Assembly (NCBI GenBank): GCA_002763225.1
Contig: PFAI01000018.1
Location: 1 to 18,210 of the forward strand
Length of the DNA: 18,210 nt
Direction of reading: 5' to 3'
Origin: Candidatus Diapherotrites archaeon CG10_big_fil_rev_8_21_14_0_10_31_34
GTDB lineage: Archaea > Iainarchaeota > Iainarchaeia > Iainarchaeales > 1-14-0-10-31-34
Part shown: piece by piece, positions 15,001 to 18,000 of the stretch
Layout: each line of letters starts with the position of its first letter
How positions within the stretch are numbered: position 1 is the first letter of the stretch
Program-made: the position numbers

Positions 15001-18000
15001 TGGATTTCTCCTTCCCTGAATTCAGTGTCTCCAATTACAGGCAAATAAAGAGATGAAACCGCTTGTCCTTTTGCTCCGACAAAAACAATAAAATGATTTA
15101 TTTTATTTTGATTAAATGCAGTTAAATCATTATAATTGCAGTAATAATCTTTTTGCACTGCAGTAACATCTGTGATAAAAGCACCTGATGCAGTTGAAGT
15201 AAACTCTTTTCTTGACATAAAAAAATACGGATAGCTGTAAGGACTAAGATTAACTTTAATGTAAACCAGGTAATCAAAAGAATTTCTTACAGGCATCATT
15301 ACTTTTTTGATTGAATCAGTTAATTCTTCCCTGAAAAAATTAATGTTTTCATCATCAGCATAATCTTCTTTTACTGCTGCAATCAAATAATCAACTTCCT
15401 CTGAACAAGAATCTGGAGTGCAATCATCTCCAAACTTTCCGTCAACAGTTAAAGGCAGTCCATCTCTTGCAAAAGAAGAATACAAAATTGTTTTTAATGC
15501 ACTGACAGCATAATCTGAGCCAAACTTTGAATTAGAATATTCTCCTACAGTTCTTCCATACTGGGAACTGAAAAAAAACAAAAAAGAAACCAAAGACATT
15601 ACAATCAGCAAAAAAAACAATGCATCAGTTATTGCTGCCTGCCCTTTATAATTCATTCTTTCCATGCAACCACCACTAATTTAACCGGCAAAGCAACAGA
15701 ATTTTTTTGCAGGATAATAGGATAATACCTTAAAACAATTCTTGAATTAGGCGACAAAACTTTTTGTTGAGTTAATTTTTCTTCAGTATTAGAGCACTTA
15801 AAATAATCTGATCCTTCAAAAAAATAATCTTCATCTAAACTTAAAACATTAATATCCTTGTTTAAGTCTATTAATCCGGCAGAAAAATACGGCTGTCTTA
15901 CATTTAATGCATCACAGGATTTTTTGAATTCCTCTAAAGAAGAAACAAATCCAGTGCCTCTTAAAGAAGCACCAATTTGGACTACAGCAATATCATTTTC
16001 AAAATCAACTGTTTTATCATTATAAGTGTTTACTGTTGCATAAAAAGAAGAAAAAAAGATAATCAAAGCAAACATTAAAGGAATCAAAGAAGGAAGGTCA
16101 TCTCCTATTGGACCCAAATAACCTTTTTTGTTTTTAATTAATTTTCGTAAGAACAATTAAATCCCTCTGGCCTGATTTTTTGTCCTGCAATCCCCATTAA
16201 AGTACTGCAGTCTGAACCTCCCCTGTTACTGCAAGGAATAACATAAATTGTTGTTTCGCCTAAATTAACTTCTTTTAATAAAACATATGCATCAATCTGA
16301 GTTTTTGCCTGCGGGTCAAGCATTGTGTTTGAATCATAAATATTAATTTTAGATGGATTTGCAGTAATCAGCTCCTGAAAATCAAAAAAATTCATTTTTG
16401 CATCAGTGTCAAAAGATGCAGCAGCCATATAAGTTTCTGGAGTTCTTCTTGGAGCCAAAGCAAAAATCATTTTATTTAAACCATTTTTTCCTGTTCCTTG
16501 TTTGATATTTAAAACATAATATAATCCTCTTCCACTGTTCCCTGAACTTGCTTCAATTGAATCCTTTAAATAATGAATTTGTGCTGCACACAAAGTAGGA
16601 GAACCAACTAAAGTAAAAGCATCCTGTGCATGAATTCTGACATAATCGTTTGCAATGTTTTCAACTAAAATCTGAGAAAAACTAAAAACAAAAAACAATA
16701 CAATAGAAAAAACCGCTACAACAAAAATAAGCAGATTAATTTTGCTTAAAGTAAAACCAAGCATTTTTATCCCTTTAATTTTTTCCTTTTAAATAAACAC
16801 AAATAATCGGGTTATCAGAACTTGAATTAGGAGAATACAAAAACTGATAAATTCCTGAAACAAAACCAGCATCTGTTTCAACATTAATTCCTTCAAAGCC
16901 AGCCATTGCTTCACACGAATCACCTTCATAATTAAACTGAGTGCTGGAAGTTACATCAATGCATTTGTCTTGTATTCCTGTTACATCTGAAGTTGAATAA
17001 CGCAAAACCAGACAACTTGAAGACGGATTTAAGCAAAGCCTTTGGCATAATCTTGGTTCATCTGAATTAAACAAAACAAATGATTCTTTTTTAGTGCAGT
17101 TAGGCAGACTAAAATTGACGTTTGCCGGCTGCTGATAAACTGCAGTTTTTTCTATTGCTAATTTCAAGTCATTCATTAATTTTTCTGTAGTATTAAAACA
17201 TTTTTGTTTTGATGCTTCATTCATTGCATTTAATCCTACAATAATAACAAAAGTCATTAAAATTACTGCAACAAGCAACTGGAAAGGCGCTTCTTCTTGT
17301 CCTTTATTAAACAAAAAAATCATCCTCCTAAAGGCTGGTTTATTTGCTGGCTTTTATGAAACATTGGCTTGATTACAGTAATCAAAAGCAATGCTGCAAT
17401 AATCAATACAATCAGCATGTAAACAGAATTCCATTCACTTTGGGCTCGCTCTTCTAATAATAATCCCATAGGAAAAATAACGTCAAAGAAATATTTAAAT
17501 CTGCCCTTTTTCTTTTTTCCGAAAAAGAAAAAGTGCAAGTTGCCCAAAAAGAAAAAAGGTTTTAATTAAAAGAAAAAAAATAGAAGCAGTACGACTGAAA
17601 GTCGTACGTTTTGTTAAACCTTTTGTAAAAGGTTTTTTTGATAAAACTTTTTTCTAAAAAGGTTGCAGTGCGGCTTTATGCCGCACATTTGGTTAAACCC
17701 TTTGGAAAGGGTTTATTCGTTGGATTTAATTAACAGCATATAACAGGCTTTTCCTGAAGCTTCAGTTATAGTGCAATCAGAAAAGTTTCCTGGAAATTTC
17801 TCTGAAAGGGTTGGGGCATAATCTTCAAAAAAAGCAGTTTCATCTTGAAAATCTGTTCCTTCAGCACAAATTCCTGCTAATTTAACTCTAACTGAACCGC
17901 TTCCAGTATAACTTATTAATTTTCCATTTGAACTAAACTGTGCGTCCGCTAAAGCATCTTCTACCCCAAGGCAAATCTGGTCTTCATCTAATCCAACTTC

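Follow-up and report, generated by a model that had tools for sequence, protein, structure and literature searches.

How do short hairpin repeats come to lie against stop codons and tRNA genes in a streamlined archaeal genome, and are they signals for RNA ends or sequences that have moved there? The question is raised by one array in the window, which is the whole stretch of DNA that was analysed (18,210 nucleotides from Candidatus Diapherotrites archaeon CG10_big_fil_rev_8_21_14_0_10_31_34); this stretch is a complete contig, and contig and window coordinates are therefore identical. A preliminary description had flagged an array at 17581..17717. The array is real. On the minus strand, 17586-17714 reads as two 50-nt double-hairpin units and one degenerate A/T hairpin, with its start within the upstream gene's TAA stop and its end at an oligo-T tract (Table 1). 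The stem of the first A hairpin takes in this stop (17715..17713) of the ORF at 17713-18174. Stem GTGCGGC and loop ATAAA form the B hairpin of unit 1, and stem GTACGACT and loop TTC that of unit 2, each followed by TGC. Against the covariance model R1 the two units score 76.8 bits (E 7e-17) and 73.0 bits (E 7e-16), respectively. The 146-nt array stretch has a folding energy of -43.1 kcal/mol compared with a shuffle mean of -20.8 (z -7.0), and 0 of 200 shuffles were as low.

Table 1. Features of the array, its neighbours and the tRNA-Glu locus in the window.
Feature	Position	Strand	Description
Unit 1	17714..17665	-	A hairpin, AACCAAA linker, B hairpin, TGC
Degenerate A-module	17664..17636	-	A/T hairpin with one C.T mismatch, stem 9, ATCAAAA tail
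Unit 2	17635..17586	-	A hairpin, AACAAAA linker, B hairpin, TGC
Oligo-T tract (T8 C T4)	17560..17585	-	Sequence, 3' of the array
P element, 57-60 nt repeat	17500..17559	+	Long T/C-A/G hairpin and GTGCAAGTTGCC-type tail
Upstream protein gene	17713..18174	-	Unit 1 stem opens with the three bases of its stop codon
Downstream small gene, 49 aa	17320..17469	-	Conserved start MG..SEWNSVYML
TATA-like TTTAAATA box of downstream gene	17499..17492	-	
tRNA-Glu(CTC)	250..351	-	Rfam tRNA, 52.3 bits; aragorn -i
Structured 5' leader of tRNA-Glu	352..450	-	Sequence read
tRNA-Glu 3' trailer	1..249	-	GC-type hairpin modules up to the contig end

The genome in which the array lies (G000) is a 1.04 Mb assembly, 81% complete, from a genus represented by six genomes (G000-G005, thus five congeners); gene calls are longest-ORF approximations. 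The hosts belong to a group of tiny groundwater DPANN archaea, and the sequencing runs listed for the genome are 24 DNA runs from groundwater or aquifer metagenomes and 0 RNA runs. An Rfam scan of the window returned tRNA and no other known RNA family. The upstream protein has no Pfam family, and its C-terminus (..SNE/SDE) and stop position are conserved in five species, while the downstream gene is conserved across species and in metagenome contigs. A P element sits immediately before the TATA-like box of this downstream gene and is missing from the orthologous site in G001, G002, G003 and G005. In G000 this type of element has about 10 loci, including three tRNA introns, and every genome of the genus has copies that are 90-100% identical. 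A scan for regular spacing of 45-100 nt found only a 57-bp tandem repeat and an A-module array; a CRISPR array was rejected, the modules abutting without spacers.

Two modules make up the family. The A-module, of 28-30 nt, has a stem NNA(A/C)C followed by T4-5, a loop of about 3 nt and a tail WWCAAAA; the B hairpin has the stem base GYRC, the loop RYAAR and TGC at its 3' side. G000 holds 130 A-modules in its 1.04 Mb. Full units gave 11 strict regular-expression matches and 32 near-full copies by nhmmer, which agrees with the earlier figure of 32 matches in this genome. The covariance model, here built from 22 copies, gave 72 matches at E<=0.01 and about 31 at E<=1.5e-5 (150 of 1976 candidates scored). 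Covariation of both helices was also reproduced: 95.8% of cells are paired and 8 of 15 pairs have two-sided changes. None of 500 shuffles matched the observed percentage of pairing or the covariation score, 2 of 500 matched the count of eight pairs, and slid controls were 18-49% paired. Repetition of intergenic DNA is likewise borne out, with 26.2 of 109.5 kb having another copy under crude ORF calls.

The description had further confined the unit to this genus. This holds for the B hairpin and for the A+B composite, which is found in all five congeners (79, 60, 15, 27 and 13 R1 matches, those in G003 being weak with a best E of 2e-6) and gives weak matches or none in the other three genera of the family. 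It does not hold for the A/T hairpin with its WWCAAAA tail, present in 12-57 copies in those three genera; elsewhere in the order it is patchy, with as many as 72 copies in unrelated genera. The A-module occurs there in the same contexts, with stop codons inside the stem, at tRNA 5' ends and at the start of a tRNA intron, and among congeners of another genus its number ranges from 0 to 72 (controls 0-3). Within the present genus, counts by genome are highest in G001 (106) and G000 (96). Discrete B variants are shared between species. We propose that the A-module is the older part and that the B hairpin arose within the genus; a B hairpin landing behind an existing hairpin-plus-tail would then give the 50-nt 'unit' of the preliminary description.

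The position of the array invites reading the hairpins as functional RNA signals first and foremost, serving as terminator helpers, 3'-end stabilisers or processing punctuation for tRNA and RNase P RNA, with one good solution copied to many sites. In archaeal termination, oligo-T alone suffices, and the tract at 17560..17585 is likely to be the terminator of the upstream gene. The last B hairpin, followed by TGC and the T8 tract, resembles an intrinsic terminator, as do the last B hairpins of some other arrays, and a scan for terminator-like sites in 17300-17900 found 3 against 0.5 expected. In one orthologous 3' UTR, B-type GC hairpins stand right before long T-runs in five of six species; 13 of the 32 full units have a stop codon or tRNA 3' end of the same strand no more than 3 nt from their start, a hairpin follows at 0-2 nt 3' of all seven RNase P RNA genes, and the covariation of both helices counts on the same side. 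Against the terminator likeness, the tail of the A-module is A-rich rather than T-rich, and most gene ends here have no such hairpin: a perfect hairpin lies at -4..+3 of just 79 of 996 CDS ends, over a dense background, and the notion of a hairpin at every gene end was rejected. TTTTGTT follows each B hairpin on the opposite strand. Stem mismatches in A-modules comprise 8 G.U and 6 A.C pairs, giving no excess of G.U over A.C, and the strand test is uninformative.

Orthologous sites differ in content. The site of the array has at least seven configurations among related genomes and contigs, and in G003 and G002, both without units there, a stop-proximal hairpin precedes the same T-rich tract. 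The counterpart of unit 1 in G001 has an A part identical at 28 of 28 positions, between diverged flanks and with a different B variant. The B variant of unit 2 was found in G000 alone among the matches listed, where it has four perfect copies and two near-copies, joined to several A variants. In G002 one 3' UTR is empty, holding just a T-run; the five other genomes fill it in different ways. Several tRNA-Glu 3' ends also carry just a T-run.

Modules have also entered genes. In an NMP-kinase-like gene, an A-module provides eight extra codons in G000 only, with none in five of five orthologues; the identical 28-mer lies in a second gene and is missing from all five orthologues. A third A-module is present in a gene for an HTH protein in G000 and G001 and missing in four orthologues, and a fourth, in a gene for an Lhr-type helicase, is missing in G002 and G005. 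All four mid-ORF modules compared with orthologues are thus lineage-specific in-frame insertions; three more same-strand modules lie mid-ORF, and six near ORF 3' ends. The RNase P RNA genes of G000 and G002 share an insert of 56-57 nt with two A-type hairpins that is missing in five other genes, and that of G003 alone has a different A-module of 26 nt. In one case the RNase P insert has AACA on both flanks; across the 32 units, no general target-site duplication is visible. An RNA-end role is impossible at the sites inside protein genes. The modules are insertions, and not primarily RNA end signals. The REP/MITE-like reading of the earlier work is now much more strongly supported, by insertion polymorphism in protein genes, RNase P RNA and a tRNA intron, and the lineage-specific RNA end signal that it had named as the alternative is disfavoured by the empty orthologous sites, by modules in coding sequences and a ribozyme gene, and by their mirrored placement on tRNAs. 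That the family is primarily a set of functional RNA signals now seems quite improbable to us.

The tRNA genes display this mirroring. Enrichment of hairpins at tRNA ends was found again: a perfect hairpin lies at 17 of 37 3' ends and 13 of 37 5' ends (-1..3 nt), compared with 107 of 5000 random genome positions and 197 of 5000 random intergenic positions. As modules are mirrored around tRNAs, their tail sequence differs at the RNA level between the two sides, which counts against a common RNA signal. In the window, tRNA-Glu(CTC) has a canonical intron of 27 nt that is itself an A/T hairpin, and the default mode of ARAGORN misses this intron-bearing gene. Its leader holds two A-modules (367-393 and 407-434) with a small GC hairpin between them (394-406). 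On either side of this block stand partial copies of the tRNA: nucleotides 5-14 as an inverted 10-nt copy at 355-364, and the first 16 nt as a diverged direct copy at 435-450. tRNA-Glu(TTC) has the same layout in G000, G001 and G003, and not in G002, G004 or G005. On the 3' side, the hairpin of the first trailer module adjoins the tRNA and its GTAACGGTGC tail points away. Such GC-type modules lie also 3' of tRNA-Arg, tRNA-Ile and tRNA-Thr and fill tRNA-Ala introns, and direct duplications of tRNA ends of 14-21 nt bracket hairpin blocks.

The introns are placed at the canonical 37/38 site (aragorn and manual reading). For tRNA-Asp the intron content is wholly exchanged from species to species: G000 has three A-modules there, G003 two P elements and G005 A+A'+P. 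Splicing of this intron is inferred because tRNA-Asp(GTC) is the sole gene for that anticodon in the aragorn list. Since the same modules occur inside and outside introns, intron content is drawn from a genome-wide pool. Among the Thermoproteales, related introns common to several tRNA genes have reportedly been described as intron transposition. At the 3' end of tRNA-Ile(TAT), an A-type hairpin is kept in all four alignable genomes (G000, G001, G003 and G005), which is a point for an RNA signal. Inverted modules might also serve as promoters: TTTTGAT sits at about -30..-24 from six abutting tRNAs, unlike the TTTAAA-type boxes upstream of other tRNAs, and we give this role a low probability. 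Leaderless tRNAs with such promoters in a lineage without RNase P were rejected, RNase P RNA being present in nine of nine genomes of the family.

The arrangement of modules is polar. In G000, 25 of the 130 A-modules abut a gene end, and in 25 of 25 the hairpin is beside the gene and the tail points away; the random expectation per orientation is about 0.55 at CDS ends and 0.02 at tRNA ends. Adjacent module pairs number 44, six of which are one hairpin called on both strands; the other 38 comprise 33 tandem (head-to-tail) pairs, four with tails inward and one with tails outward, and this arrangement contains no terminal inverted repeats. A 39-nt tandem amplification occurs in G002. Full units follow the sense of the upstream feature in a ratio of 23:9. 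Density of A-modules is 0.50 per kb in divergent spacers, compared with 0.93 in tandem and 0.85 in convergent ones; the 14 of 130 modules in divergent spacers, together with those inside ORFs and RNase P RNA, count against an RNA signal, as does the variation from 0 to 72 copies among congeners of another genus.

We consider it reasonably probable that the array consists of selfish, non-autonomous palindromic modules, each a hairpin with a tail, which spread by templated copying without a dedicated transposase. Copies would persist where a hairpin does little harm. Such places are the gap between stop codon and oligo-T terminator, the leaders, trailers and introns of tRNAs (which RNase P, tRNase Z and the splicing endonuclease cut away), the periphery of RNase P RNA and, for in-frame copies, protein loops. 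Copying between loci would start from microhomology of A/T runs and proceed by ectopic conversion or by a template switch as DNA is replicated. Such copying would account for swaps of B variants, mosaics, head-to-tail arrays and perfect stems. The hairpin would face the gene if the nascent strand copied the tail, then the hairpin, before meeting a replication barrier at a transcribed gene end, and any benefit of a 3'-end hairpin would be secondary. The tail of both RNase P inserts is native sequence, an A-run or AACAAAA, and in the three coding events read at the nucleotide level the native flanks resemble part of the module. This A/T-run microhomology at junctions favours templated copying but leaves it unproven; in an A/T-rich genome it can easily occur by chance, and junctions cannot be placed exactly between species that share only about 80% identity. 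Some features look constrained, including the tRNA-Ile hairpin, the RNase P 3' hairpins, the identity of the A part of unit 1, the sense bias and the low density in divergent spacers, and could reflect a role at 3' ends or purifying selection on where modules lie.

The same mobile modules could be moved by a dedicated enzyme that was not detected here in scans for PF01797 and TnpB. Candidates would be an HUH/Y1-type transposase that recognises the hairpin and tail, as RAYT does REP, or an integrase or nuclease that a virus, a plasmid or the episymbiont's host cell supplies in trans; with G000 81% complete, it is possible that a trans-acting enzyme comes from the host, a virus or an unassembled contig. 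Two features look like sites of protein recognition: the combination of a hairpin with a short, fixed tail, and an RYAAR loop that stays conserved while B stems vary. The strict hairpin-first polarity could reflect oriented choice of targets beside stem-loops on either DNA strand. The duplications of tRNA ends resemble integrase att cores, and a tRNA 5' fragment left behind by a recombinase-bearing element is described in PMC3293823. The absence of Y1/RAYT from this genome was confirmed, PF01797 being found in one of the six genomes of the genus, G002 only (4 matches), which combines these matches with many copies and tandem arrays. However, units lie at least 600 nt off, and on one side only, at the two Y1 loci of G002 read in detail; a RAYT-like arrangement, which would place units beside the Y1 genes, was rejected. 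PF01797 is also missing from G000 and G001, the genomes richest in A-modules, and TnpB (PF07282) from all six. An IS200/IS605 or PATE origin was rejected: the genus has no TnpB and IS605 ends carry no modules, nine of ten IS605-type loci in sister genera having none and one an incidental copy. A 16-nt frequency matrix upstream of the 130 modules yielded no consistent target motif, which, with the lack of terminal inverted repeats, also weighs against an enzyme. On balance a dedicated enzyme seems unlikely.

Hairpins might instead arise independently in place, by template-switch (fold-back) mutation at T-runs near gene ends and with no copying between loci. PMC8794818 reports template switching as a possible source of perfect RNA hairpins that can also maintain them. 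The outer stem bases differ between copies yet remain complementary, a local stop codon may be among them (TAAAC..GTTTA in G000, TGACC..GGTCA in G139), and the leaders of tRNA-Glu and tRNA-Asp hold inverted copies of the adjacent tRNA 5' end. What fold-back does not predict are identical 28-nt modules in unrelated genes, a 7-nt tail and linker conserved across loci, species and families, discrete B variants common to several species, and the presence or absence of whole modules at orthologous sites; the shared tails already point to descent between loci. Local fold-back may polish stems, but it cannot account for the family, and as a complete explanation it is very improbable indeed.

Selfish modules spread by templated copying might form part of a wider process, to which we would give only a small chance: replication-coupled template switching at transcription barriers that spreads transposase-free palindromic parasites across the whole DPANN order. 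This would explain the mirrored, hairpin-first polarity seen on both sides of tRNAs (5' and 3'), at stop codons and at the borders of introns. It would also account for perfect stems, for variant swapping and for the bias towards sense orientation within genes. If true, the same process would build and enlarge archaeal tRNA introns and generate expansion hairpins of RNase P RNA and new protein loops.

Among known systems, the closest analogues appear to be Rickettsia palindromic elements, REP/BIME and mitochondrial GC clusters. The Rickettsia elements, of about 150 bp and integrated 44 times in R. conorii genes (PMC10969869), are likewise short palindromes without an encoded transposase in a reduced A/T-rich genome, found in frame in unrelated protein genes and also in non-coding DNA and RNA genes; in-frame insertion missing from orthologues is seen here in all four mid-ORF modules compared. 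The archaeal modules differ in host and in size (28-50 nt), have no sequence relationship, form head-to-tail arrays and A+B composites, fill tRNA introns, adjoin tRNA ends with fixed polarity and overlap stop codons. With REP/BIME they share an extragenic, mosaic and clustered nature, a location mostly at gene 3' ends and a number that varies between strains; 32 full units and 130 A-modules, in arrays, make many clustered short palindromes. PMC3733652 states that REP palindromes have a conserved GTAG (or CGTC) tetranucleotide at one end, that some classes (CGTC type) have no dedicated transposase and that some lie inside genes. The consensus of 22 units here (GYRC stem base, TGC 3' end, WWCAAAA tail) has neither tetranucleotide, no RAYT is flanked by units, the host is an archaeon, and arrays are head-to-tail where those of REP alternate.

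Mitochondrial GC clusters, with which double-hairpin elements can be grouped, are GC-richer hairpins in a compact A/T-rich genome, with sporadic distribution, varying copy number, merging and shuffling into new elements, and no transposase, recombination or conversion being invoked, all of which resembles the present case. A putative AG target duplication, mentioned for GC clusters in PMC4478555, was not seen for the modules; both mitochondrial types also differ in residing in an organelle rather than a free archaeal genome, and have no sequence relationship. Non-autonomous archaeal repeats are noted in Sulfolobus, Halobacterium and Haloquadratum in PMC10969869, and a TIR-based census gives some DPANN genomes a high MITE density (PMC11602168). 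The modules described here differ from archaeal MITEs and PATEs in having no terminal inverted repeats and, among IS605-type elements, no partner IS, in a genus without TnpB.

The invasion of protein genes in frame by small palindromes is a classic oddity of Rickettsia; our literature search found no archaeal counterpart and no work on such repeats in this lineage. For DPANN annotation and assembly the repeats have practical consequences: they break contigs, ORFs run through modules, and an intron-bearing tRNA is missed. If the proposed explanation is true, one pool of 28-50 nt modules can be traced into 3' UTRs, tRNA leaders, trailers and introns, a ribozyme gene and protein loops of streamlined genomes of about 1 Mb, without a recognisable transposase. 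This would provide a concrete, testable system for the movement of non-autonomous palindromes, and a route by which archaeal tRNA introns may gain and exchange sequence.

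The basic repeat of this genome (G000; 1.04-Mb assembly, 31% G+C, 81% complete, 65 contigs) is a module of 28-30 nt, the A-module, and not the 50-nt unit in which it is joined to a second, GC-rich hairpin (B). The A-module has a stem of the form NNA(A/C)C followed by T4-5, a loop of about 3 nt, and a WWCAAAA tail, most commonly ATCAAAA (81), AACAAAA (52), or ACCAAAA (20) in a loose set of 264. The two outer stem positions vary among copies, with complementarity retained. A stricter set of 130 A-modules was kept for counting, with stems of at least 8 and no mismatches, or at least 10 and at most one mismatch; 33 of the 38 pairs of adjacent A-modules have a head-to-tail arrangement, and in 13 pairs the modules abut exactly. 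In the B hairpin a perfect stem of 7-8 bp rises from a GYRC base, the loop is usually RYAAR, and TGC follows on the 3' side. When perfect B hairpins followed by TG are considered (n = 20), 16 lie one base past an A tail and the other four follow GC-type hairpins whose tail is 8 nt long. A B variant with a TTC loop, seen in G000 only among the matches listed, is joined to several different A variants, which indicates that B spreads independently, landing behind an existing hairpin and tail. The same grammar of hairpin plus tail is found in GC-type hairpins with a GTAACGGTGC tail and in the long hairpin of a separate repeat, the P element, with its GTGCAAGTTGCC-type tail. The P element combines a 12-bp T/C-A/G hairpin, whose copies covary, with a GTGCAAGTTGCC..AAAAAGAAAAAAGG tail. 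It occupies about ten loci in G000, three of them tRNA introns, and its copies are 90-100% identical over all six species of the genus, where coding DNA is only about 80% identical.

Since the window is the complete contig of 18,210 nt, contig and window coordinates are the same. The T of the stop codon at the array is also base 1 of the 10-bp A/T stem of unit 1. Folding of the 146-nt array stretch gives -43.1 kcal/mol (z = -7.0), and none of 200 shuffles is as stable. The P element here falls precisely in the gap that separates the next gene's TATA-like box from the presumed BRE position.

Locations of modules and associated features (C, contig and L, extracted locus of the genome named; G001-G005, congeners of G000)
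Feature	Location	Strand	Remarks
ORF	window 17713-18174	minus	TAA stop at 17715..17713
Unit 1	window 17714..17665	minus	A hairpin, 7-nt linker, GC-rich hairpin, TGC
Degenerate A/T hairpin, ATCAAAA tail	window 17664..17636	minus	
Unit 2	window 17635..17586	minus	
T8CT4 tract		minus-strand reading	directly after unit 2
P element, 57-60 nt	window 17500-17559	plus	read 17559..17500 in minus-strand order, after T8CT4 tract
TTTAAATA box, then small conserved gene			downstream of P element, minus-strand order
Other P element copies	G000 C58:128-191, C14:1949-2007, C53:9773-9833; also C39, C51, C15, C42, C45		
tRNA-Glu(CTC)	window 250-351		
Four-part tRNA leaders	G000 C31:24601-24790; window 352-450; G005 L080; G001 L081; G003 L083		
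Blocks with 21-nt tRNA 3'-end copy	G000 C13:9740-9977, C45:2502-2830		
Tandem arrays, 39-40-nt period	G002 L057 787-992 (C14:22286-22491), C93:6439-6568, C134:3716-3847		
tRNA with ARAGORN call tRNA-Tyr(gta)	G000 C47:13525-13735		
Tandem repeat unrelated to modules	G000 C33:3240-3530		
RNase P RNA gene	G000 C47:1688-2071 (L030)		in alignment A2 of RNase P RNA genes
Two RNase P RNA genes	G004 C70:708-1025, C41:8672-8942		
Sense A-modules near ORF ends	G000 C44:2815-2842, C60:2575-2602, C60:32048-32075, C32:1455-1483, C11:17730-17757, C14:6248-6275		
Y1-transposase-like ORF	G002 L054 3326-3745		

The preliminary description had claimed a multicopy unit with two covarying helices, shared by the congeners and concentrated at tRNA ends, and these points were reproduced. 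A strict regular expression finds 11 units in G000, and by nhmmer profile 32 near-full units and about 100 half-units are recovered; a new covariance model, with 150 of 1976 candidates scored, gives at least 72 matches with E<=0.01, of which about 31 are strong. In an alignment of 22 units, 95.8% of cells are paired and 8 of 15 pairs are changed on both sides. None of 500 shuffles is as high in percentage paired or in covariation score, two match the count of eight pairs, and slid controls are 18-49% paired. The composite is present by covariance model in all five congeners, weakly in G003, and in the family's other three genera the model gives weak matches or none. For tRNA ends, ARAGORN with introns allowed gave 40 genes, from which three doubtful ones were dropped. 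Of the 37 tRNA genes kept, 17 have a perfect hairpin within -1..3 nt of the 3' end and 13 have one at this distance from the 5' end; for 5000 random positions each, the figures are 107 in the whole genome and 197 in intergenic DNA. Intergenic DNA with a second copy elsewhere amounts to 26.2 of 109.5 kb, again in line with the earlier claim, and runs of N marking assembly gaps are located within repeat arrays.

Furthermore, the introns of 17 inspected intron-bearing tRNA genes are largely built from hairpin modules. The tRNA-Glu(CTC) of the window is identified by Rfam and by ARAGORN with introns allowed, and ARAGORN in its default (bacterial) mode detects no tRNA there; default annotation would overlook many tRNAs of this genome. 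The gene called as tRNA-Tyr(gta) has an odd intron position; its sequence fits tRNA-Arg(TCT), and the canonical intron, about 140 nt long, is a homologue of the tRNA-Arg(CCT) intron on contig C16. Separately, a tandem repeat of 57-58 bp in about five copies bears no relation to the hairpin modules and is probably coding.

The preliminary reading of a mobile, REP/MITE-like element is well supported by insertions in protein genes, RNase P RNA, and a tRNA intron, together with turnover at individual sites. Four mid-ORF A-modules were compared with orthologues (nine further intragenic or C-terminal modules fall outside this comparison), and all four are lineage-specific, in frame, and in sense orientation. 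For example, an NMP-kinase-like gene (Pfam DNMK/AAA_17) has eight additional codons in G000 only, and a second gene carries the same 28-mer, encoding the same decapeptide; both insertions are absent from five of five orthologues. An HTH_3 protein has an A-module in G000 and G001, absent in the other four genomes. In an Lhr-type helicase the module lies within the DEAD domain region; G005 lacks it, as does G002, where the alignment shows a clean gap of 9 codons, G003 has another, long insert at the site, and no orthologue was found in G001 or G004. Six further sense A-modules lie 15-53 nt before the ends of long ORFs, and the last residues of such proteins may be module-encoded, with the original stop displaced. 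Among seven RNase P RNA genes aligned from the six genomes (271 to 384 nt long), those of G000 and G002 alone share an insert of 56-57 nt in which a small palindrome accompanies two A-type hairpins, and that of G003 alone has a different 26-nt A-module; in both inserts a native A-run or AACAAAA doubles as the tail. The two different RNase P RNA genes in the G004 bin (3% contamination) point to a strain or species mixture.

Turnover is also evident at single sites. In the canonical intron of tRNA-Asp(GTC), G000 has three A-modules in tandem and G003 two P elements; the G005 intron combines an A, a degenerate A, and a P. The site of the window array has two and a half units and a P element in G000, one unit in G001, a diverged unit in G005, an unrelated hairpin and T-run in G002 and G003, and three additional layouts among metagenome contigs. 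Between the G000 and G001 units the A part is identical (28/28) and the B stem is swapped for another family variant. Another 3' UTR has no hairpin in G002, where 5 nt separate the stop from the T-run, and holds different hairpin sets in five other genomes.

Pieces of tRNA genes are also caught up in these arrangements. tRNA-Glu(TTC) of G000, G001, and G003 and tRNA-Asp of G005 carry a four-part leader that opens with a direct copy of tRNA nt 1 to 14-16 and continues with an A-module, nt 4/5-14 copied in inverted orientation, and a short spacer. Each of the five tRNA-Glu genes detected in G002, G004, and G005 is without such a leader, and tRNA-Glu(CTC) in the window has the same type with a second A-module. 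In the pre-tRNA the inverted copy might tie up the decoy 5' strand. In the G003 leader, the upstream copy and the tRNA itself share the same base change. Behind tRNA-Ile(GAT) and tRNA-Thr(CGT) of G000 stand about 105-135 nt of GC-type hairpins, a 21-nt copy of the gene's own 3' end (T loop to discriminator), and a T-run; both blocks contain assembly gaps, and the tRNA-Ile(GAT) orthologues in G004 and G005 are without the duplication. G002 has tandem arrays of the 3' arm of A, linker, B, and TGC that begin directly past a tRNA 3' end, including a five-fold amplification with a 39-nt period.

Placement follows a strict polarity. Among the 130 A-modules, 25 lie at feature ends (-4..+3 nt), namely 12 stop codons, 7 tRNA 3' ends, and 6 tRNA 5' ends, and in all 25 the hairpin is gene-side and the tail outward, with none tail-first; chance expectation per orientation is about 0.55 at CDS ends and 0.02 at tRNA ends. 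The hairpin begins at -3 or -2 in 8 of the 12 stop-codon cases, so that the stop codon is part of the stem. The hairpin-first rule also applies at both splice sites of the long introns of two tRNA-Arg genes and to a GC-type module beside tRNA sequence. The overall distribution of modules is such as purifying selection on random or semi-random insertions would produce in a compact genome, where free space is confined to the interval from stop codon to T-run, that from T-run to the next TATA box, and RNA segments removed by processing.

It has also been proposed that the hairpins are primarily functional RNA signals, for example with a role at 3' ends, an explanation that ranks second. Full units are sense to the upstream or enclosing feature in 23 cases and opposite in 9, and A-module density per kb in divergent spacers (0.50) is about half that in tandem (0.93) and convergent (0.85) ones; the arrangement flanking tRNAs, however, is mirror-symmetric and not sense-specific. 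Hairpins stand behind all seven RNase P RNA 3' ends and behind tRNA-Ile(TAT) in the four alignable genomes, and long T-runs are often preceded by B-type hairpins, but a perfect hairpin occurs at the stop in only 79 of 996 CDS ends (background 4-8 per kb) and some orthologous sites are empty of modules. Stem mismatches show no excess of G.U (8) over A.C (6), modules are present in ORFs and a ribozyme gene, and some congeners in another genus have none. A secondary benefit as a 3'-end hairpin is possible.

The claim that the repeat is restricted to this genus holds for the B hairpin and fails for the A-module, which is found in other genera and another family. Across the six genomes of the genus, the B pattern is matched 20, 11, 29, 3, 10, and 4 times (reversed-pattern controls 0-1), and in the order's other 190 genomes its counts resemble controls and the matches listed are not hairpins. 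The A pattern (core plus tail, with controls per group) gives 96, 106, 53, 43, 31, and 21 matches in the genus (control 0-5), 57, 25, and 12 in the family's other three genera (0-1), 34 in one genome of another family (0), 0-72 in 17 congeners of a distant genus (0-3; the genome with 0 copies is 93% complete), up to 15 in a further genus (control low), and 0-5 in most other genomes (control similar). Contexts in distant genomes are as in G000: a stop codon supplies the first stem bases (TGA..TCA), three A-modules stand in tandem behind a TAG stop, an inverted A-module contacts a tRNA-Ala 5' end, and a tRNA-Trp intron begins with an A-module. The A-module is best described as order-wide, and the B hairpin as a genus-specific add-on.

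As the preliminary description had it, there is no cognate Y1 transposase: PF01797 occurs in one of six genomes of the genus, and units do not flank it. TnpB (PF07282) is absent from all six, no modules mark the ends of IS605-type loci in sister genera, and neither terminal inverted repeats nor a conserved target motif was found for the modules. Movement by an undetected enzyme acting in trans is a serious rival explanation. G002 also has a Y1-transposase-like ORF with a C-terminal part similar to the end of a DDE (rve-type) integrase; the gene may be chimeric or decayed. At the two RNase P insertions, and at three coding insertions compared at nucleotide level, the native flank resembles part of the module (an A-run, AACAAAA, or a CTTTTnnAAAAA-like stretch), a likeness that chance can readily give in an A/T-rich genome. 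Added to the exchange of variants at one site, the mosaics, the tandem growth, and the perfect stems, this resemblance favours spread by templated copying between loci, seeded by microhomology, which would take the form of ectopic conversion or template switching. A nascent strand might copy the tail and then the hairpin just short of a barrier at the end of a transcribed gene; if so, the mirror polarity follows. Comparable proposals are outlined for mitochondrial GC clusters (PMC4478555) and for the creation of hairpins by template switching (PMC8794818).

A search for hairpin or palindromic repeats of DPANN or Iainarchaeota, confined to open-access literature without supplements, turned up no account of this module family. 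Archaeal MITEs are known (PMC10969869), and some DPANN genomes have a high MITE density in the TIR-based census outlined in PMC11602168, but the modules here have neither terminal inverted repeats nor a partner IS. REP/BIME elements, as described in PMC3733652, are closest by location and mosaicism; their defining GTAG/CGTC tag and RAYT gene were looked for in these modules and genomes, and neither the tag nor a Y1 gene flanked by the repeats was found. Mitochondrial GC clusters are closest by genome type and transposase-free shuffling (PMC4478555), and Rickettsia palindromic elements, which also occur in frame within protein genes according to PMC10969869, are closest by behaviour. The feature is real and its mobility well supported, with both its mechanism and any function being inferences. 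The modules are best regarded as the archaeal, modular equivalent of palindromic elements of the RPE/REP type.
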